This document shows, piece after piece, positions 24,332-63,173 of a DNA stretch of 64,000 bases; the stretch's first letter is position 1, and each line of letters starts with the position of its first letter. A model generated the notes under the pieces. It ran no database searches, was not told the origin of the DNA, and was given only the letters and a program-made list of their open reading frames with translations. Both the position numbers and the translations under genes were made by a program. Source of the stretch: a bacterium (GTDB lineage Bacteria; Joyebacterota; Joyebacteria; Joyebacterales; Joyebacteraceae); NCBI GenBank assembly GCA_025782395.1, contig JALGZD010000211.1:2111-66110 (forward strand). Reading direction: 5' to 3'.

Positions 24332-27300
24332 ATGATTGTGGTCTGTCAAAAGAGAGGAGGGCCGAAGACATGGAGTCCTCCTGTTGGTGGGTACGTGTGT
24401 TCAGCGTGTGTTACATGGAGCAAGATGATACGCGGATCTCTCGGTGTGTTCCGACATACCTCGAAGAATGAAGGGCCTTCCGATCTGTCGGAGCCCGGAT
24501 CATCCGCCGTACGCGTGCCCAGCCGCGGTTGGGCTGTTTCCGCGCGGTTTCTGGTTCTGACGCTCATTCTCCTCGGGGTCTTCACCCAGTTTGAGAGCGT
24601 TGTCCGTGCCGACTCGGGTTCTCCGGAGCGGGAGGACACGGTCGCTGTGGTGCCGGGGGTGCCGCCGGCTGACACGCTTGCTCTCACGCCGGCTGACACG
24701 CTTGCTCTCACGCCGGCTGACACGCTTGCTCTCACGCCGGCTGACACGCTTGCTCTCACGCCGGCTGACACGCTTGCTCCCGCTCCGGCTGACACGCTTG
24801 CTCCCGCTCCGGCTGACACGTTTGTTTCCGCTCTGCCTGAGACACTTGCGCAGGCGCTACGTGACAGCACGGTTCCGCCCGATCCCTTCGCAATAGGCTT
24901 GTCGCTCGAGCCGGAGACCAAGGGCGAGTTCGCCCGTCCCTGGAGCTACAAACCGCGCGTCCCTCTCTTCGAATCAACCGTTGTGGCGGCGGCTCTGCCG
25001 AAGTTCGTGCTGACGGGCGTACCACTAAGGAACACCCTCCACGTCGATCTCGAGACGGGATTGGTCTGGGTCGAGTCGCGAAGCGGTGACGTCCTGGCCT
25101 TCCCGGCCTACGCAGCTCCGCTTGATGAGTTCCAGGGTCAGGTTGGGAAGCGTTCGGTGAAGGCAGCCTGGCTGGCCGCGGTGCACAGGGAGCTTGCCGC
25201 GTCGAGAGAAAGACAGGCGGGCGGTCTCCTGGATATTGACATTCCGATGCCACTCCCTGGGCCTTTCGTCAAGGCGATCGGACCCGGCGCCAATCTTAAG
25301 GTGCGCGGGAGCGAACGGATCACATTCGGAGGACAGACGAGCTATACGGTGGAGGCACTGGAATCGGAATCGGGACCGGCGTCGCGGTGGCCTCAGCTGG
25401 ACATGGAGCAGCAGTTGACCGTCAACCTTGAAGGGACGATCGGGCGCAAGATCCACGTCTACGTCGACCACAGAAGCGGTGGAGATACTTTCGGGGGAGG
25501 GAAGGCAAACCAGATACGGGTTCACTACGACGGCGATGAGGATGAAATACTCCAGAAGATCGAGCTGGGCGAGGTCAACCTGTCGTTGCCCGGAACGGAG
25601 TTCGTGAGCTACAGCGGGCATCACGAAGGGCTCTTCGGAGCGAAGATGACCGCAAGGGTCGGCAAGCTGGATCTCGTCTTGATCGCCAGCAAGGAGGAAG
25701 GCGAGTCTGCTGGAGCGGGTTTCACAGGGAGTTCGGAATCCGATTCCCTCCATATCGATGACATCTCATACAAGGCCAGGAGCTTCTTCGCTGTGGATGG
25801 TGACGTCCTCAAGTACTCCAACAGCGAGTTCTCTATTCAGGAGATTCACGTCTACGTGGATGACCGGAATGGCTCGAACAACATCGAGACGGGTGCCGCG
25901 CCCGGCCGCACATATCTGGACGATCCCGTCGACGGATTGCCTCCTTCGGGCGGCCCGAGCCAGCGCGGGGACTTCGACGAGCTGATTGAGCTTGAAGACT
26001 ATCTCTTCGATTACCAGAGCGGTGTTATTGAGTTTGTGAGACCCGTTTCGACAACTGGGGTGCTTGCCGTGAGCTACGTTCGCTTCGACGGCTATACAGT
26101 TGGGGGTGTGGACGGCGACAGTCTCCGACTGAAAATGCTCAAGAGAGAGGAACGCGTGGGTGGCACGGATTGGGAGCCGATCCAACGCTACGAGCTGAAG
26201 CACATCTATGATCTTGGAGCCGACACCATCCCCGAAGAGGGTTTTGAGCTTACCATCAAGAAGCGAGCATCATCAGGAGAGGACCCTGAATCGGAGAACG
26301 GTGTGCCGTTCATCGAGATCCTGGGACTCGACACGCATGGCCTGGGCGCAGATGCTGATCCTGACGGTGTGGTCGATCTGGAGTGGATAGATTTCGAGAA
26401 GGGTTACCTGGTCTTCCCGCATCTCACGCCGTTCTGTCCGGACTACGACACGACGGCTTTCTACTATCCGGAAGGCGGAGGCCCCGACGCTATCTATGTG
26501 GCGGACGAGCTGGAAGAAAAGAACTGCAGCGTCTATTCGAAGGAGAGTTTCAGCGCTGACGATGACATCTACTACATCGAAGTGTCCTACAACCGTCCGC
26601 AGACGACGTTCTATCTCGGACACATCAATATCATCGAGAACAGCGAGGTTGTTCGACTCAACGGCGTCCGGCTCACGCGCGGCATTGACTATACGATCTA
26701 CTATCCGGCAGGTCAGTTGACACTCCTTACGGAGGAAGCGAAGGAGCTGGACGCCAAGATAGCAGTGGACTACGACTACAAGCCGTTCGGCATCGGCGGA
26801 GAGAAGACCCTGCTGGGGACGCGTGCTGTCTACAACTGGCAGCAGAACATCAGCGTCGGCTCGACTTGGATGTACCAGAGCAAGGGGACGCCGGACGATC
26901 AGCCGAGACTGGGTGAGGAACCGTCCCGCACGGTGGTGGGCGATGTCAACCTCAGCGCGGAGTTCAGGCCCGAGCTCATGACCAGGATCGCGGACGCGGT
27001 CCCGTTCATCGACACGGATACGGAATCCTCGCTCAAGATCGCAGCAGAGGTCGCGGTCTCGATTCCGGAACCCAACACGAAAGGGTTCGTTGCCATCGAC
27101 GACATGGAAGGAACCGAGAATGTGAGCCGGCTGGGTGTGACCAGGCGTCTGTGGGTTCCCTCAAGTGTTCCCGTTGAGCCGATGGGAATTTCTGCGGCGG
27201 ACCGGGTGAACGTCGACTGGTTCAACCCGGACCGGAAGGTACGTGAAGGCGATCTTCATCCGGACCTCCCGTCCCAGGAGGCCAACGACACGCACACGGT

Positions 27301-54643: not shown

Positions 54644-54730
54644 GGAGGGCTAGTCCTAATTGGTAAGGCAGCGGTCTTGAAAACCGCCGGGTTTGCGCCC
54701 TTGGGGGTTCGAGTCCCTCGCCCTCCGCCA
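54644..54730 (+). tRNA. tRNA-Ser(TGA)
   Basis: GGAGGGC/GCCCTCC acceptor stem, GCGGT-CTTGAAA-ACCGC anticodon arm, long variable arm, TTCGAGT loop, encoded CCA. Confidence 0.95.
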
Positions 54731-54760
54731 TGACAAGTGACATAGGCGAACACGCGCGAT

Positions 54761-54850
<90 letters not shown>

Positions 54851-54860
54851 GACCAGTAGA

Positions 54861-54937
54861 GCGCCCATAGCTCAATTGGATAGAGCATCTGACTACGGAT
54901 CAGAAGGTTGGGGGTTCGAGTCCTCCTGGGCGTACCA
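54861..54937 (+). tRNA. tRNA-Arg(ACG)
   Basis: GCGCCCA/TGGGCGT stem, TCTGA-CTACGGA-TCAGA anticodon arm, TTCGAGT, CCA. Confidence 0.96.
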
Positions 54938-56396: not shown

Positions 56397-56421
56397 ACTA
56401 GGGGTTTGTGCTTTGAGAGAG

Positions 56422-56454
56422 GCGGCACGGGGGCCCTTGGGCCCCCGTGCTGCT
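56422..56454 (+). terminator. GC-rich hairpin after the lipoprotein gene
   Basis: GCGGCACGGGGGCCC-TT-GGGCCCCCGTGCTGC near-perfect inverted repeat. Confidence 0.6.
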
Positions 56455-56594
56455 GTCGGGCGCGGCGGTTTCGGCGCCTGTGGCCCTGCAGGGTGAGTGA
56501 TGCTGTAGGGTGTTACTCCTGTTACATGGCACAGGGCTTGACTAGTAGTCGTGTGGGAAAAAGCATCGGATTGGGTTCTTTGCACGGAGGTTCC

Positions 56595-57737
56595 TTGCCC
56601 ACTGTTATTCATACAGCAGACGTGCATCTCGGCGCGCCGCTAGGTTGGCTTGGAGCACGCGCATCCGATCAACGCGAGCAGCTGCGGCAGACGTTCCGTT
56701 CGATCATCGACCTGACTATCCAGGAAGACGCGGACTGCCTCATCATCGCCGGGGACCTGTTCGACAGCAATCGGCCGCCGGGGTCGGCCGTTCGCTTCGT
56801 GCTCCGCGAGCTGGCGCGGTTGGGCGATTCCTCCGAAACGTACACCGTGATCCTCCCGGGTTCGCACGATCACATGGGGGATGGATCGGTCTTCTCCTGC
56901 TACAGCAACGAGTTCGCCCAGATCGAGCGTGTGCACATTCTCGGGGCGCACGATGTGCGTTCCGTGGTGATTCCACGCGCGAGTCTTGTCGTGCACGGAG
57001 ATCCGCCGCGCTCGAACTCGTCGAGTGAGCACCGGCTGGCAAAGCTCAGGCCGCAGGCCGACCACGAATACAATGTCGCAGTCGCGCACGGCTCGGTGGA
57101 TGTGGTTCCCGTAGAGCCGGAGGATCATCCGATATCGCGCGACGAACTTCTGGCACCGGGTTGGTCGTACTTCGCGCTGGGACACTGGCACTCCTGGAGG
57201 GAGATCGAAGGGAAAGGGGCGCCGGCCGTCTATCCGGGCGCGCCCGAGGTGATTGCCGCTGATCAGGCGGGATCCGGACATGTGGCGCGGATCAGCCTGG
57301 GTGGTGAGGGGGTGGAGGTAACCAAGGTGAGAGTCGGTGCGCGCACGGTATCGAGTGTGCAAATTGACGTAGGCGGGGCGATGGACACCGACGAAGTCGC
57401 GCGCCGGGTGGCGACCGAGCACCCAAAAGATGTGAATGCAATCCTCTCCATGACTCTGACGGGTCTCATGCCGGTCGGTTCAGGATTTGAACCCGAAGCG
57501 TTGCTTGAGGTGCTCAAGCCGGACTACTTCCACGTCAGGTTGCCACGTCTGAACTACGAGGTGCGACTGAGCCACGATGATCTGGAGGCGCTTCCGGAAC
57601 GACTCGTCATAGGACGGTTTGTTCGCCTCATGAAGGAACAGATCGATGCTGCCGAGGACAGCAACGACCGGGAGGATCTGGAGGCTGCTCTTCAGATGGG
57701 AGTTGCATTGCTTCAGGGGAAGGACGTGCTGGCGTGA
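56595..57737 (+). CDS. Mre11/SbcD-like metallophosphoesterase nuclease (YhaO-like)
   Basis: HTADVHLG, IAGDLFD, PGSHD, AHG, ALGHWH, YPG.PE; TTG after GGAGG. Confidence 0.9.
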   Translation: MPTVIHTADVHLGAPLGWLGARASDQREQLRQTFRSIIDLTIQEDADCLIIAGDLFDSNRPPGSAVRFVLRELARLGDSSETYTVILPGSHDHMGDGSVFSCYSNEFAQIERVHILGAHDVRSVVIPRASLVVHGDPPRSNSSSEHRLAKLRPQADHEYNVAVAHGSVDVVPVEPEDHPISRDELLAPGWSYFALGHWHSWREIEGKGAPAVYPGAPEVIAADQAGSGHVARISLGGEGVEVTKVRVGARTVSSVQIDVGGAMDTDEVARRVATEHPKDVNAILSMTLTGLMPVGSGFEPEALLEVLKPDYFHVRLPRLNYEVRLSHDDLEALPERLVIGRFVRLMKEQIDAAEDSNDREDLEAALQMGVALLQGKDVLA

Positions 57738-59863
57738 GACTGGGGCGACTCAAACTCCGCAATTTCAGGGGCTTTGGGGACTACGAGCTCAATTTTGCTC
57801 AAGGTCTCAATCTGCTCATCGGCGCAAACGAGTCAGGAAAGAGCACAATCATTGACGCCCTCGGGGTTGTGCTGTTCGTGGATCCCGGTACGAAGGCCAG
57901 AGCGATCCGTGAGCTTGAGTCGTGGGGATCAACAGGTGGAATGCGTCTGGAACTCACGTTCGAGCACGGTGAAAGCAAGTACGAACTCAGGAAGGACTTC
58001 GGATCCGGGCGCGCTGAGCTCAGTGGCCCGGACATAGGTCTCGTGGCTGAACGAGCCAAGGTGAGCGAACTCATCGGGGAGATGGTCGGTTTCGGGAGCC
58101 GTGAGGCATTCGAGTCGGTTGCCATGGTGCGACAGGGTGAATTGGTTGCGTTCGGCGGCCAGCCCGGCAAGAGCAGGCGGGCCGAGCTTGTCCCGATGAT
58201 AGAACGAAAAATGACCAGTGCGAGCGGGCGAGTGGACGCCGCCGCAGTTGTTTCCGCGCTGGAGGAGCGCATCCGCGACCTGCGCGTGGGCATTGACCGA
58301 CCGGCTGTTCGTCCAGGTCGTCTCAGGAAACTCATGGATGAGGAGAGAACGCTCGCTCAGAAGATCGCGGCAGTCGGCCAGGAGTGGTCGAAGCAGCTGG
58401 CGAGAAAGGCGGCTCACGCGGGCAGACGCGAGGAATGGACGGCCGTGAACGATGACCTAAATCGCCTGGTCAGAATCGTCGAGCAGCAGGAATCCAGTAT
58501 CAGACTGTCTGAGGAGCTTGAGCAGATCCGGGAGAACCTGCTTAAGAGAGAGGCCACGATTGCGAGGATCAGGAAGCTCACGGCGGATCTGGATGACGCT
58601 GGACGGGAGAAGGACAGCGTTCCGCCGGGGGAGTGGGAAGCCGTCAAGTTGGCGCGGAGCGATCTTGAGGCAACCGAACGACTGATCCGCCAGTTCAAGG
58701 AGGAAGCGACAGTCAAGGAGGGTGCGTCCAGTTCGAAGACCGGGGGGATCGCCGCGGTGTTGGTGATCGCAGGGCTTGTGACGGCTTCCATCGCGGTCTT
58801 CATCGTCGGCGACTCGACGCTGCGTCTTGCGGTAGGAGGGATCGCCTTCGCCCTTCTCCTCTGGTCGACCGTGCAGTTCCGCCATCTGGCCCGAATTCTC
58901 GAATACGAGCAAGGTCTCAAGAACCACATGCGGGAGCGGGGGAAGCGAGAACTTGCGTTTCAGTCTGCACTCATGAGGATCGGAGTCCCGAGCTACGCGG
59001 AATTCGCACGCATCACGGAAACCCAGGAGACGCTCTGGCGCCGCGCTGAGGTGTCGAGGGCGCAGCTCAACGAGGTCTGTGACGGCAAGGACCCCGAGGA
59101 GTTCGAGGAGACACTACGCACCGACGCGGTCTCGCTGGGTCGCAGGCGCACCGAACTCGAGGGGCTGGTGGGTGGCCCCGACGTTCCCGAGCTGCTTCTC
59201 GACAGAGCAGCGCTTGCGAAGCTTCGGGAAGAGCGAGACAGCAAGAGGGAGCAAGAGACGCGTCTGCGACGTAGCATCGATGACGATCAGATACGGATGG
59301 AGCGCGATGAGAAGGGAGAAGCTCTTCCGGATCTTGAGGCGAAGCGGGAATCGGTGCTGGCCGGGATCAGTAGGGTAGAGGAACGCATCAGGATCATGCA
59401 ATTGGCGGCACAGGGGCTCGAGGGAGCGCTCACGAGCACGAAGGAGGAGGCCGCCGAGGTACTCGCTCCGATCATCAGCAGGGTCCTTGAGCGGATCACG
59501 GGCAGCAGGTACTCACGCGTGTCGGTCAGCAAGGATCTCGAAGTCTCCCTTGACAACCCATCGCTGATTCCCGGAGCTCCAGAAAATGTTCTCGAGAGCG
59601 ATCTCAGCACCGGCACGGTCGACCAGCTCTACCTCGCCACTCGCTACGCTCTTCTGGAGTTCCTCTCTTCCCAAGACGGCGCGCCCTTCATTCTGGACGA
59701 CTCCCTCGTCAATTGCGACCCCGAGCGCCGGCAGCGGACGTTCGAGCTGATGCGCGAGATATCGGCTGAGCGCCAGGTGATCGCCTGCATGTGCGAGGAT
59801 CACGGCGTCGAGCGTCCAGTCAATCTGATCAAATTGCCATCCATCAGCACGCCATCTTCATGA
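57734..59863 (+). CDS. Rad50/SbcC-like SMC ATPase with central two-helix hydrophobic segment (YhaN-like)
   Basis: Walker A GANESGKST, Q-loop VRQG, coiled coils, signature LSTG..DQLYLA.R, Walker B ILDD.LVN.D; GTGA overlap with the nuclease gene. Confidence 0.88.
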   Translation: MRLGRLKLRNFRGFGDYELNFAQGLNLLIGANESGKSTIIDALGVVLFVDPGTKARAIRELESWGSTGGMRLELTFEHGESKYELRKDFGSGRAELSGPDIGLVAERAKVSELIGEMVGFGSREAFESVAMVRQGELVAFGGQPGKSRRAELVPMIERKMTSASGRVDAAAVVSALEERIRDLRVGIDRPAVRPGRLRKLMDEERTLAQKIAAVGQEWSKQLARKAAHAGRREEWTAVNDDLNRLVRIVEQQESSIRLSEELEQIRENLLKREATIARIRKLTADLDDAGREKDSVPPGEWEAVKLARSDLEATERLIRQFKEEATVKEGASSSKTGGIAAVLVIAGLVTASIAVFIVGDSTLRLAVGGIAFALLLWSTVQFRHLARILEYEQGLKNHMRERGKRELAFQSALMRIGVPSYAEFARITETQETLWRRAEVSRAQLNEVCDGKDPEEFEETLRTDAVSLGRRRTELEGLVGGPDVPELLLDRAALAKLREERDSKREQETRLRRSIDDDQIRMERDEKGEALPDLEAKRESVLAGISRVEERIRIMQLAAQGLEGALTSTKEEAAEVLAPIISRVLERITGSRYSRVSVSKDLEVSLDNPSLIPGAPENVLESDLSTGTVDQLYLATRYALLEFLSSQDGAPFILDDSLVNCDPERRQRTFELMREISAERQVIACMCEDHGVERPVNLIKLPSISTPSS

Positions 59864-60023
59864 CCAACAAGAGCGACGGATATGAGGCTCCGCCGACGCC
59901 TGGTGGTGCGTGGGGTTCTTGCGTCCTGTGCTGTTTCGCTGAGAGCGGGAGACTCGCGGCGAGGTGGGTTCTATCTGCGGCGTTGCGCTTGAGCGCCGGG
60001 AGTGAGAAGATGAGGACAGCCTG

Positions 60024-61499
60024 ATGCCTTCACGGGGGCCGGATATGGAAATGCGCTGTCCGAAGTGTGGTGGTACTACTGTCGTCAAGAGCGAAACGTG
60101 GAGTCGGAGCAGCAGTCGCCTCGTGCGCGTGGCGCAGTGCGAGTCGTGCGGGAGCGAATTCAGGAGAGAGCTACCTTGGGGCGGTGTTTCTCCATCGGAG
60201 ATGCCTCGTAGCCGGCGCGGAATGCTCAGATGGAGTCTGTGGCTTATTGTGTCCTTGACCGTGATCTGGATCGCTCTCAATCTGACCGACTTTGTGGCAA
60301 GATCGCTCATCTACCGGACGGTGACGCGAACGGCTGAGGGCTTTCTTCATCCCGGCTGGATTGTTGCGCTGATCCTGTCGGGAACGCTGCTTTGGTTGGC
60401 TGGCAGGCGGCGCGCAACGCTCCCTATCCGCCCGGCCATACTCGCGCCGGACGTCCACATCAGACTGGAGCCAGGGGGGAAGCTGTCACTGATCTTTACC
60501 GGTAGTCGAGGTGCGATCGCTCACGACTATGTGCTTGGTCGCCGCCACGAGGAAGAGAAGAACCTCCTTCGTGAGCTCGATGACATGGCCAGACGCAGCG
60601 TGACGTTCGAGGACTGTGACGGACTGCCCGGCGCCGACGAGATCGCCGAGGCACATCGCGGTATCTATGCTGTTGGACGGGGATTGGCCTCTATTCTCGG
60701 CGGAGATGAGGACGGTGGAGCAATGGACCAACTGGTGGATCTCCCGGGGGACCACCTTCTCCTGCGGGTTCAGCGCGAGCTGAGCGCCTTTCCGTGGGAA
60801 CTCCTGGTTCCCAAGTCCGGAGGAGAGCCTCTCTGGAAACTCTACTCGCTTTCGCGCCAGATCAGAACAGACGATTCCCGGGACACGCTCTGGCGCAGAC
60901 CTGTGAGGCCGTTGAGAATGCTCCTGATGGCGAATCTGGAGCAGGGGAACGAAGGGCGGGATCTTCCTCAGGCAGAGCGCGAGGCGCAGGAGATCCTCGA
61001 GTTCGGAGCGCTGAGGCCGGAGCTCTTGCGCGTGATCAGGCGATCGCCACGAGACCTCGGGGAGCTGCGGGCCGCGCTTAACGAGCGCTACGACATCGTC
61101 CACTACGCGGGTCACACGGCTCATAATGAAAGTGGTGGAGCGGGTTGGGTACTGCCGAGCGGTGAGATCATTGATGGTCAAGATCTCTTCCTGCCTGCAA
61201 CAACTCCCGTTCTGGTGTTCTCGAATGCATGCGGCGAGGGAACGGGGACCGAGCTCCGGGTGGGTAGGCTTGCTGCGTCGTTCGCCGAAGGTGGAGTACC
61301 CGCCTATCTCGGCACGCTCTGGGAGCTTCATGATACCGGGAGCGCGGCGTTCGCGTTGGCCTTCTACCGCAGCATTCTCGACGGCGACACACTGGGCGCC
61401 TCAGTCCGGAGCGCGCGCGAACAGTCCTTCAGATTCAACGCCTTCTCGTGGGCCAACTACGTCCTCTACGGGGATCCGACTGCGAGACTCATCGAGTAG
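60024..61499 (+). CDS. CHAT-domain (caspase-HetF) cysteine protease with N-terminal C4 zinc ribbon and two TM helices
   Basis: CPKC...CESC; two hydrophobic helices; FPWELL, LP.AE.EA, IVHYAGH, VFSNAC, GTLWE..D, FYR.IL.G, WANYVLYGDP. Confidence 0.9.
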   Translation: MPSRGPDMEMRCPKCGGTTVVKSETWSRSSSRLVRVAQCESCGSEFRRELPWGGVSPSEMPRSRRGMLRWSLWLIVSLTVIWIALNLTDFVARSLIYRTVTRTAEGFLHPGWIVALILSGTLLWLAGRRRATLPIRPAILAPDVHIRLEPGGKLSLIFTGSRGAIAHDYVLGRRHEEEKNLLRELDDMARRSVTFEDCDGLPGADEIAEAHRGIYAVGRGLASILGGDEDGGAMDQLVDLPGDHLLLRVQRELSAFPWELLVPKSGGEPLWKLYSLSRQIRTDDSRDTLWRRPVRPLRMLLMANLEQGNEGRDLPQAEREAQEILEFGALRPELLRVIRRSPRDLGELRAALNERYDIVHYAGHTAHNESGGAGWVLPSGEIIDGQDLFLPATTPVLVFSNACGEGTGTELRVGRLAASFAEGGVPAYLGTLWELHDTGSAAFALAFYRSILDGDTLGASVRSAREQSFRFNAFSWANYVLYGDPTARLIE

Positions 61500-61564
61500 A
61501 ACGAACGGCGCCGCGAAGAAGTCGGCTCTGGGGCGCGTCAGACATATGCAGCGAGGAAGGCCCT

Positions 61565-62179
61565 TTGCGCTCTACCAAGGATCGTGACAACGCGAGCGTG
61601 AAGTTGATTGCGCGTCTGAAGGCGGGCGACGGTGCGGCATGGACGGACTTCATCGAGCGCTACCGCCGGCTCATCTTCAGCGCCATCAACAGGGTGAACG
61701 GGCGCTACGGAGCAGAATGGGACGAGGCTGTGATGGAGAACCTCTTCGCCGAGGTGCTCTTCAAGCTGCTACGCCGCAATGCAGCCGCGCTGACATCGTG
61801 GCAGGGGCGCTGCCGTCTGGAGACCTGGATCTACAGAATCGTGAGGAACGTCTGCATCGACGAACTCCGGAAGGCGGGGCGCAGGGGGGAAGTCGCAGAG
61901 GTCGATCAGGAACGTGGGCCATCGGGAGCTGGTGGGGACGAGAAGAGCTCCCGTCAGGAGCGAGTGGATCTGCGACTGTCTCTTGAACAGGCCATCGATC
62001 AAGTCCTGTCAGCGAAGGAAGCACTGGCCGTTCACCTCATCTATTTCGAGGGTTACACGTACAGAGAGGTGGGGGAACGCTTCGGGATGACGGTTGGAGC
62101 AGTCAGTGGGATGGTTTACAGGGCGCTTGGGAAGATGAAGCAGTACGGGGGGATCGCACGGTACTGGAACACGGAGTAG
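61565..62179 (+). CDS. ECF sigma factor
   Basis: AGD.AAW..F..RY, TWIYRIVRN.CID.LR (region 2), L.YFEG.TY.EVG...GMT.GAV...YRAL.K (region 4); start uncertain (TTG 61565 or GTG 61598). Confidence 0.9.
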   Translation: MRSTKDRDNASVKLIARLKAGDGAAWTDFIERYRRLIFSAINRVNGRYGAEWDEAVMENLFAEVLFKLLRRNAAALTSWQGRCRLETWIYRIVRNVCIDELRKAGRRGEVAEVDQERGPSGAGGDEKSSRQERVDLRLSLEQAIDQVLSAKEALAVHLIYFEGYTYREVGERFGMTVGAVSGMVYRALGKMKQYGGIARYWNTE

Positions 62180-62192
62180 GGGACTAGAGATC

Positions 62193-63011
62193 ATGGCATG
62201 TCCACCACGCGAGCGGCTTCTTGCTCACATTGAGGGTCTTGAATCAGAAGTGGAGCGCAGTGAGATGGAGAGACATCTCCACAACTGTCGGAGCTGCTCA
62301 GAAGAAGTGGCGATTCTAATGGCGATCACGGACGCTCTCAGAGGCGAGGCAGGGACATCCGCAGCCCCGGACACGATCTGCAGCAGGTCAGATGAACTCC
62401 TGGCGTACGCAGACGGGGCACTCGATCCGTCGGTCGCTGCAGAGTTCGAAGAGCACCTCGTTCATTGTCGCAGCTGCTTGCGTGAGCTGGCGGACGTGTG
62501 GGCGATGGGGGGACCGGACGAAGCCGATGCCGGCCCAGAGGCCGTCGCGGGAGTCATGAGGCGACTCGCAGAGGAGCGGCGGACAGTTCTGGTGCGGATC
62601 TCTGAGACGACCCTGATAGCCGTAAGGACTGTGGCAGCTTCGATTGACAACGTGGCAGGCTGGAGCGTTATCCCCGATCTGCCGGCGGCGGCCGCCGCAC
62701 GATCACGACGGCGCATGCTGCGGTTGTTGTGGCGAGAGGAAGGTGGCATTACGGTCGAGTATGTGCTGGAGCGCTCGCGCGGCTTCATAGAACTGACAGG
62801 TCGTGTGAAGAACGCGGAGGGACCGGCGCCGGCGATATCGGTGGCTGTCGCCAACAATGAGAGTGCTCGCGGACCGCAGTCTCCGGATTCAGCAGGACGG
62901 TTCGGGCCGTGGAAACTAGCTCCAGGGCAGAACACGATCTTGCTGTCGGGGACGTCCATAGCGGACGGACTGTCGCACCACGAGATCATGGTGGATGCAG
63001 TTCGCGACTGA
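62193..63011 (+). CDS. Putative soluble anti-sigma factor with two tandem zf-HC2 domains and a C-terminal beta-rich domain
   Basis: HLHNCRSC and HLVHCRSC, each preceded by C....LLA(H/Y)..G; no TM helix evident; 13 bp after the ECF stop. Confidence 0.85.
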   Translation: MACPPRERLLAHIEGLESEVERSEMERHLHNCRSCSEEVAILMAITDALRGEAGTSAAPDTICSRSDELLAYADGALDPSVAAEFEEHLVHCRSCLRELADVWAMGGPDEADAGPEAVAGVMRRLAEERRTVLVRISETTLIAVRTVAASIDNVAGWSVIPDLPAAAAARSRRRMLRLLWREEGGITVEYVLERSRGFIELTGRVKNAEGPAPAISVAVANNESARGPQSPDSAGRFGPWKLAPGQNTILLSGTSIADGLSHHEIMVDAVRD

Positions 63012-63038: not shown

Positions 63039-63066
63039 CGCGGGGCGCCTTTGCAGGCGCCCCGCG
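63039..63066 (+). terminator. Perfect 12-bp hairpin after the anti-sigma gene
   Basis: CGCGGGGCGCCT-TTGC-AGGCGCCCCGCG; weak U-tail. Confidence 0.6.
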
Positions 63067-63157: not shown

Positions 63158-63173
63158 TGGCACACCACTTGCA
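63158..63173 (+). promoter_or_regulatory. sigma54 (-24/-12) promoter
   Basis: TGGCAC-ACCAC-TTGCA matches TGGCAC-N5-TTGCW; intergenic; oriented toward the next gene. Confidence 0.75.

Follow-up and report, generated by a model that had tools for sequence, protein, structure and literature searches.

Here, we analyzed a three-gene locus at positions 60024-63011 of a 64-kb stretch of DNA (the window) from an uncultured sediment bacterium of the phylum Candidatus Eisenbacteria, which consists of one family. The locus encodes a membrane-tethered CHAT (separase/caspase-like) cysteine protease, a sigma factor of the extracytoplasmic function (ECF) type and a soluble anti-sigma factor with two zinc-associated anti-sigma (ZAS) domains, and we give about even odds (roughly 50%) that it works as a proteolytic sigma switch in which the protease cuts the anti-sigma factor. 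The proposal builds on the domains of the three proteins, a conserved catalytic dyad, co-inheritance and co-loss of the genes, their separate promoters and the finding of such a trio in other phyla as well. In the proposed switch, an ECF-type promoter, presumably self-activated, would drive the sigma factor together with the soluble anti-sigma factor, which would keep the sigma factor inactive. The protease would be made separately and be anchored in the inner membrane by an N-terminal hairpin of two helices, so that both its zinc ribbon and its CHAT domain would be cytoplasmic. When the protease senses a signal, at the membrane or within it, it would cut the anti-sigma factor, the likely site being after Arg170, in a flexible linker between the zinc domains and a C-terminal immunoglobulin (Ig)-like domain. 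The N-terminal part of the anti-sigma factor, freed or destabilized by the cut, would release the sigma factor. We infer the binding, the cleavage and its site, the signal and the topology.

The three open reading frames all lie on the + strand (60024-61499, 61448-62179, and 62193-63011). The first, assigned by Pfam, AlphaFold, and Foldseek, encodes the 491-aa protease and is the sole CHAT gene of its genome. The second encodes a sigma factor of about 204 aa at 61565-62179, whose likely TTG start (61565) is preceded by GAGGAAGG and follows the protease gene after a gap of 65 nt; when loci within the phylum were compared, a TTG or GTG start was found at the aligned position in relatives. The protein is matched by TIGR02937 (E 1.7e-24, 86.3 bits vs. 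a cut-off of 42.9) and by Pfam Sigma70_r2, Sigma70_r4, and Sigma70_ECF, and it has the sigma-2 and sigma-4 regions only, as is typical of ECF (group 4) sigma factors. Two Cys of region 2, C83 and C97, are kept in at least 95% of 25 sigma orthologues. The third frame encodes the 272-aa anti-sigma factor (62193-63011).

Conservation within the phylum was assessed in 31 species genomes from eight genera. From these, 26 loci were fetched, and orthologues of the protease (25 sequences; alignment A2) and of the anti-sigma factor (22 sequences; alignment A1) were aligned. The protease is present in 30 of the 31 species genomes. The sigma gene lies directly downstream of it in all 26 fetched loci, with sigma identities of 55-84%, and the anti-sigma gene comes next in 24 of them, both misses being contig ends; SbcC precedes the protease in 24 of the 26 as well, again with contig ends as the two misses. 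The earlier note had suggested a gene-neighborhood search for the triad, and the triad proved to be syntenic across the phylum and, as described below, to recur as a trio in other phyla. In the genome G006, which is 100% complete, the protease is missing, as is an anti-sigma orthologue, with zinc-motif matches only at E 0.003 or weaker. Its locus runs from SbcD and SbcC over 278 bp to a histidine kinase and a REC/GGDEF gene. Since exactly the three genes of the triad are missing between unchanged neighbors, the triad is gained or lost as one block. A FastTree phylogeny of SbcC (a single gene with midpoint rooting and a support of 0.79 for the key branch) nests the genus of G006 among triad-bearing genera, and loss of the triad in G006 appears likelier than a late gain, unless the root lies on its branch. 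The sbcC frame of G006 also carries one in-frame TGA. On this comparative evidence, the three genes are one conserved module.

It is conceivable that the three genes are mere neighbors in the frozen gene order of a small phylum, and that the sigma and anti-sigma factors work without the protease. Synteny is equally well kept for the flanking sbcD, sbcC, kinase, and REC-GGDEF genes, the protease gene has a promoter-like site of its own, outside the ECF-type motif, and the sigma factor falls outside the clade of the trio sigma factors from other phyla. However, exactly these three genes are absent together in G006, and the same three kinds of protein stand side by side in 35 of 52 evaluable loci outside the phylum, which were found by a search with the CHAT protein only. 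In addition, the C-terminal domain and the linker motif are common to the anti-sigma factor described here and the CHAT-linked anti-sigma factors outside the phylum. Taken with this evidence, mere adjacency strikes us as very improbable.

The first member of the module is predicted from its sequence and model to be an active enzyme with an intact dyad. Pfam CHAT (PF12770) matches residues 239-484 (60738-61475, + strand) at E 2.9e-23 (83.2 bits vs. a cut-off of 24), and Peptidase_C25 gives a weaker match. A catalytic His near 61113 and a Cys near 61230 had been proposed from the letters alone; translation indeed places His364 at 61113-61115 and Cys403 at 61230-61232, and H360 and H364 (HYAGH) together with N401 and C403 (SNAC) are invariant in all 25 orthologues. 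The AlphaFold model of the protease (pLDDT 80.3) consists of a beta ribbon, three helices at residues 65-131 and the CHAT core. Searched against the PDB with Foldseek, it gave 48 matches at E ≤ 0.001, indicating a caspase/separase-like fold, and the top matches were separase, Craspase Csx29, DdvA, and SAVED-CHAT, at E 5e-10 to 4e-8.

Two conserved features precede the CHAT domain. The first is an N-terminal zinc ribbon, C12-x2-C15 ... C39-x2-C42 (60057-60152, + strand), recognized by Cys conservation: each of the four Cys is kept in at least 90% of the 25 orthologues, and the ribbon is present in six of seven genera. NCBIfam CxxC zinc-binding models match it weakly, under their cut-offs. The public gene call, 425 aa from Met67, leaves the ribbon out (60024-60221 region), and it is the conservation of the ribbon at the protein level that supports the longer form. 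The ATG at 60045 may be the true start, and two orthologues of the same genus begin at the position of M8. The second feature is a transmembrane hairpin (60216-60416, + strand), identified by hydropathy and by AlphaFold, whose model helices span residues 65-87, 90-106, and 110-131. Hydrophobic segments at 67-85 and 107-125 are both found in 23 of the 25 orthologues by hydropathy; W82, Y97, and P110, in or between these segments, are invariant in all 25. Because there are two membrane passes with Arg-rich flanks at both outer ends, we infer an in-in topology, in which the zinc ribbon and the CHAT domain would both be cytoplasmic, on the same side as the soluble anti-sigma factor. Neither a TPR nor anything C-terminal to the CHAT domain was detected in the protease by Pfam, model or hydropathy. 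The earlier note had suggested a membrane or zinc-ribbon input. The ribbon cannot be an indispensable sensor because it is missing in genus g6 (L036 and L043; 428 and 432 aa).

The proposed substrate is matched by zf-HC2 (PF13490) over two stretches (E 7.4e-11, 42.4 bits vs. 22.2), which correspond to ZAS domain 1 (62199-62297, + strand; C3...H28xxxC32xxC35) and ZAS domain 2 (62379-62477, + strand; C63...H88xxxC92xxC95). As had been claimed, the protein has two HxxxCxxC motifs and no transmembrane helix. Both CHCC motifs are complete, with a Cys (C3, C63) 25 residues before each His, and all eight ligands are invariant in the 22 orthologues, among which the linker between the motifs varies by 0-30 residues. 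No transmembrane segment was found in 21 of these 22 proteins with 19-residue windows and a Kyte-Doolittle threshold of 1.6; the single exception reaches 1.62 in its C-terminal strand region. Among PDB sequences, the best match for ZAS domain 1 (residues 4-60) was RsiW (5wuq_C, E 1.8e-5), and ZAS domain 2 (residues 68-108) matched the N-terminal domain of DdvA (8rlz_A, E 5e-5). In the model of the anti-sigma factor (pLDDT 70.5), a pair of three-helix bundles and a helix at 115-127 are followed by a segment of low confidence (128-173) and by a confident Ig-like beta-sandwich at 175-267, which we assign to residues 174-268 (62712-62996, + strand). With this model, a fold search of the PDB had no match at E ≤ 0.001 and returned just generic beta-sandwiches of the Ig-like or macroglobulin-like kind, and an Atlas feature search with residues 110-272 returned unnamed clusters only (best score 0.92).

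Within the low-confidence segment, the alignment of orthologues revealed an invariant Arg170 (62700-62702, + strand) in the motif P-A-x-A-x-A-R-S/G, and we consider this residue a candidate cut site. Separase and gingipain R, which Foldseek identified as structural relatives of the protease, cleave after Arg. Complex prediction with protease residues 128-491 and the anti-sigma factor, both entered as alignments and run without controls, gave scores of 0.27, 0.40, and 0.01 against a mark of 0.32, which we weigh neither for nor against binding.

Possible novelty had also been seen in the architecture of the locus. The tandem zinc motif is real, but it is common elsewhere and cannot be claimed as unique. 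The number of representatives matched by a profile of the anti-sigma factor was 17264 with a limit of E ≤ 0.001, 875 with 1e-10 and 41 with 1e-30, and eight of ten representatives inspected have two zinc motifs: five combine them with the same kind of C-terminal end and three with a hydrophobic stretch. We therefore rejected the tandem ZAS arrangement as a novelty. The other two of the ten carry four or five motifs; these proteins, P0119 and P0120, are membrane anti-sigma-like proteins with four or five tandem HxxxCxxC repeats, and we know of no studied anti-sigma factor with that many.

The zinc domains could also be the sensor themselves. In this alternative, the anti-sigma factor would be a redox or zinc sensor like RsrA that releases the sigma factor upon thiol oxidation, and the protease would have another role: it might cut the sigma factor or some other substrate, clear used anti-sigma factor, or be held by the C-terminal domain of the anti-sigma factor in the manner of separase and securin, the latter being a pseudosubstrate inhibitor of separase (PMC11506125). 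Both CHCC motifs being complete and invariant would fit such a sensor, as would the sub-threshold match of the RsrA model TIGR03988 (36.7 bits vs. a cut-off of 62.5), the lack of a recognizable sensor domain on the protease and the finding of separase as its best structural match. ZAS proteins can be redox sensors, but most ZAS anti-sigma factors are not. Moreover, the linkage of a soluble ZAS protein with an outward-sensing membrane CHAT protein in 35 of 52 loci outside the phylum fits a relay from protease to anti-sigma factor better, and a conserved Arg in a flexible linker would be superfluous for a redox switch. For these reasons, we regard a purely redox-driven release as unlikely.

The arrangement of promoters is consistent with a protease made separately from its candidate substrate. 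ECF promoters have GAAC-like -35 and CGTC-like -10 elements, and a candidate of this type, GAAGAA-N14-GCGTC, lies at 61515-61539 on the + strand, about 50 nt before the sigma start. It is the single match to GAAGAR-N14-RCGWC in the 64-kb window. The motif precedes the sigma start in 23 of 25 loci, at a distance of 48-53 nt in 22 of these 23; at locus L044 it lies 27 nt from the start, the call of which is doubtful. In genus g4 it falls inside the 3′ end of the protease gene. By comparison, it was found before 0 of 23 protease starts and 0 of 22 anti-sigma starts, and in 30 of 2500 random 110-nt windows used as background. The site at 61515-61539 is presumably the auto-regulated promoter of a two-gene sigma/anti-sigma operon. 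A scan for a wider regulon in the genome of the window gave 12 strict ECF-type matches, most of which lie within reading frames, and a crude intergenic filter missed even the true site; of 44 matches to a refined N14 motif, two passed the filters and neither was convincing, and we derive no regulon from these sites.

The protease gene is preceded by a sigma-70-like promoter candidate, TTGCGC-N17-GAAGAT (59983-60011, + strand), recognized by its match to the consensus. Nine of 25 loci, from genera g1 and g5 only, have the form TTGCGC-N16-18-GAnnAT no more than 150 nt upstream of the protease gene's start. Because the ECF-type motif is absent before the protease gene and present before the sigma gene, the protease looks like the input of the switch rather than its output. 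The same role is suggested by relatives that carry outward sensor domains and by the restriction of any sensor on the anti-sigma factor to zinc. The 3′ end of the operon is likely marked by a 12-bp GC-rich hairpin with a TTGC loop at 63039-63066 (+ strand), found by folding and read from the sequence, so that the earlier picture of three co-oriented genes closed by such a hairpin is accurate. The folding energy of the 51 nt that surround it is -35.6 kcal/mol (z = -6.06), a value equalled by none of 200 shuffles. The hairpin is without a U-run and was not called by the terminator scan; a perfect GC-rich stem of at least 8 bp within 130 nt past the anti-sigma stop was present in 8 of 22 loci, with sequences that differ between genera.

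Further evidence for the trio comes from other phyla. When each species was represented by one genome and scanned with the alignment of the protease, 80 loci were returned, 67 of them outside the phylum, from Nitrospirota, Omnitrophota, Desulfobacterota, Myxococcota, and others. These relatives match the CHAT domain only (residues ~235-491), at 29-38% identity. The outside loci were searched with the Eisenbacteria sigma and anti-sigma profiles, iterated once, and the 52 of 67 with at least 1500 nt upstream were taken as evaluable. Directly upstream of CHAT and on the same strand, 35 of the 52 have both a sigma and an anti-sigma gene, four an anti-sigma gene only and one a sigma gene only; the remaining 12 have neither. 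Neighborhoods of CHAT, ECF, and zf-HC2 genes had been said to exist in other bacteria, which turns out to be an understatement, as such neighborhoods are the norm for the closest relatives by CHAT. Pfam confirmed one example as Sigma70_r2, then zf-HC2, then CHAT(76-352)-TPR(410-716), and two more as Guanylate_cyc-CHAT with TPR and regions resembling CsgG or LpoB behind it. In relatives from Desulfobacterota and Nitrospirota (L099:4885-8331 and L064:5044-7836), the membrane CHAT protein begins with an adenylate/guanylate cyclase domain and ends in the CsgG-like or LpoB-like regions, a receptor that, from its domains, might emit both a nucleotide and a proteolytic signal.

By sequence, the locus in the window belongs, as a permuted member that has no sensor domain, to a widespread trio made up of an ECF sigma factor, a soluble ZAS anti-sigma factor and a membrane CHAT protein. 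Both versions have these three genes adjacent and co-oriented, with the membrane-tethered CHAT domain on the cytoplasmic side. The match of the outside anti-sigma factors (212-263 aa, with no transmembrane segment) to the Eisenbacteria profile begins with ZAS domain 2 and extends across the middle region, and they share the beta-sandwich end, with a terminal G-x-v-F...G-x-Y signature. The Arg linker motif is common to both as well: a Pro/Ala-rich stretch ending in Arg aligns with Arg170, in a segment with pLDDT below 50. The versions differ in gene order, which is sigma, anti-sigma, protease outside the phylum and protease first in the window. They differ also in the number of ZAS motifs, one outside and two in the window. 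In the outside CHAT proteins, CHAT is N-terminal without a leader, sometimes with a cyclase before it, and is followed by one hydrophobic (transmembrane) segment and then by TPR, CsgG-like or other domains, whereas the protease in the window has the N-terminal zinc ribbon and hairpin anchor and no outward domain. Lastly, the sigma factor in the window stands outside the clade of the outside-trio sigma factors: 40 of 42 of the latter form one group (99/97), and the Eisenbacteria sigma factors (100/100) group instead with five other ECF sigma factors of the same genome (98/88). In agreement with the tree, a profile of the outside sigma factors found the sigma factor of the window best in its genome only marginally (103 vs. 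95 bits). Orthology with the sigma factors of the outside trios is thus unsupported, and the sigma factor may have been replaced or have diverged beyond recognition.

Several of these results weigh against a proteolytic switch. The sigma tree lends no support to common descent with the sigma factors of the outside trios, and 12 of the 52 evaluable CHAT relatives are without a sigma or anti-sigma gene nearby. Within the phylum, synteny of the flanks equals that of the triad, so it is a single co-loss event that singles out the three genes. The protease has no extracytoplasmic sensor domain, and its zinc ribbon is dispensable in one genus, judging from the orthologues. As for the cut site, the case for Arg170 comes from conservation and from a model of low confidence in that region.

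Among studied systems, the closest is DdvS/DdvA of Myxococcus xanthus, in which an ECF sigma factor is held by a CHCC zinc anti-sigma domain (PMC11506125, PMC6061681). The two systems share an ECF sigma factor, a CHCC zinc anti-sigma domain and a His-Cys CHAT protease, and the CHAT domain of DdvA matches the protease of the window in both sequence and fold. DdvA is a fused polypeptide of 991 aa with a single transmembrane segment and a periplasmic TPR-CHAT part, for which self-cleavage by CHAT before the cut by RseP is proposed but unproven (PMC11506125). In contrast, protease and anti-sigma factor are encoded by separate genes in the window; there, the anti-sigma factor is a soluble protein that combines two zinc domains with an Ig-like end, CHAT is without TPR and predicted to be cytoplasmic, and no defense island is attached. 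The closest system in logic is the type III-E Craspase, where the cytoplasmic CHAT protease Csx29 cleaves Csx30, the partner of an ECF-type sigma factor (PMC10028731). Csx29 is among the best structural matches of the protease (8d9f_A, 7y85_D, and 8eex_B, E about 1e-9), which would likewise cut a soluble regulator of an ECF sigma factor. Craspase, however, uses Cas7-11, crRNA, TPR, and Csx30, whereas the regulator in the window is a ZAS protein. No cas-like, SAVED, Lon or TPR domain was detected in the three proteins by Pfam and PADLOC, nor any CRISPR-like array in the 64-kb window, which agrees with the absence of cas, SAVED, and TPR from the module noted from the sequence. Since there is no Cas7-11, crRNA or CRISPR-like array, activation cannot be RNA-guided. 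The idea of a Craspase-like switch without a Cas complex is supported as regards the conserved module, the dyad, the predicted cytoplasmic side of CHAT and the missing Cas, SAVED, and TPR domains, whereas sigma binding, cleavage and the input are its putative parts.

CalpL-CalpT-CalpS of type III CRISPR is likewise a three-part relay of protease, anti-sigma factor and ECF-like sigma factor; its protease, however, is a SAVED-Lon protein activated by cyclic oligoadenylate, and neither SAVED nor Lon is matched in the window proteins. In ECF54, CHAT is conserved next to an ECF sigma factor and proteolytic control has been proposed, but the group is described as having no anti-sigma factor, and the neighbors are CHAT, subtilase or carboxypeptidase proteins (PMC8999054). 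EACC2-caspase also places a caspase next to an ECF sigma factor, which is paired with a DUF1822 TPR protein and not with a ZAS anti-sigma factor (PMC8195603). The passages cited from these two papers mention no soluble ZAS partner for a membrane CHAT protein, and their supplements may list more. RsrA/SigR and RsiW/SigW have the HxxxCxxC zinc anti-sigma domain in common with the locus but contain a single ZAS domain each and no CHAT partner. Of these anti-sigma factors, RsrA is small and senses redox state, and RsiW resides in the membrane, where site-1 and site-2 proteases cut it.

These comparisons bring up a role in defense. The module could be an anti-phage relay of the abortive-infection type that corresponds to Craspase or CalpL-CalpT-CalpS but works without CRISPR, is triggered by infection and switches on a defense regulon. 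Indeed, the known regulators that combine a protease with an ECF sigma factor, namely Craspase, CalpL/T/S, and the DdvA/DdvS regulon, are linked to defense (PMC11506125), and PADLOC gave a weak SAVED_CHAT match, on the CHAT domain only (E 2e-4). Against this, PADLOC has no match for the sigma or anti-sigma factor, the window holds no CRISPR-like array and the annotated neighbors include no defense or mobile-element gene. The locus is also single-copy, and in 30 of 31 species its chromosomal position is the same, with sbcDC on one side and a kinase operon driven by sigma-54 on the other, unlike a variable defense island. A defense role is accordingly quite improbable in our estimation, and the locus reads as a core chromosomal module for stress or signaling rather than as a mobile defense island.

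A broader and more tentative possibility is that membrane-tethered, cytoplasm-facing CHAT proteins constitute a widespread, uncharacterized one-step transmembrane route, in which one protein would be both the receptor and the protease that destroys a soluble anti-sigma factor, and of which the phylum would carry the minimal form. The sensor would then be limited to the transmembrane hairpin with W82, Y97, and P110 and, in most genera, the zinc ribbon, and the switch would read the state of the membrane, or of zinc or redox, directly. The two zinc domains of the anti-sigma factor could integrate oxidation and cleavage, or one could hold the sigma factor while the other docks the protease. DdvA is the only studied anti-sigma factor with a CHAT domain, and its cleavage step is proposed rather than proven (PMC11506125). 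With the present locus, release of an ECF sigma factor by a CHAT protease could be tested with three plasmids in E. coli, because protease and candidate substrate are separate and predicted to lie on the cytoplasmic side, the anti-sigma factor is soluble and the promoter motif can serve as the read-out. If such release holds, a mechanism would be provided for a gene trio of several poorly known phyla, and the logic of Craspase would exist outside CRISPR, as ordinary chromosomal signaling. Within a known kind of system, the locus is set apart by the permuted order, the absence of a sensor domain, the N-terminal ribbon with its hairpin anchor and the double-zinc anti-sigma factor, and the value of the locus lies in this testability and not in a new principle. 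We found no paper on a stand-alone membrane CHAT protein with a soluble ZAS anti-sigma factor; the main text of the ECF reclassification (PMC7826278) contains no occurrence of “CHAT” or “caspase”, and its supplementary group descriptions may bear on the question.

The neighboring genes form separate units, as indicated by a sigma-54 type promoter, TGGCAC-N5-TTGCA, at 63158-63173, before genes for a GAF-HisKA-HATPase kinase and a REC-GGDEF protein. Of 22 loci, 21 have this site between the anti-sigma gene and the kinase gene; it is present before the kinase in the genome without the triad, too, and it occurs also at L049:6301-6316. Because of its position, an 829-aa frame that runs from 63068 probably starts much later. 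Upstream of the triad, the window contains the sbcD/sbcC (Mre11/Rad50-like) pair at 56406-59863 and three tRNA genes (Ser-TGA, Ser-GCT, and Arg-ACG) at 54644-54937. A 24-nt tandem repeat of about seven copies, with 92-97% matches, lies at 24663-24849.

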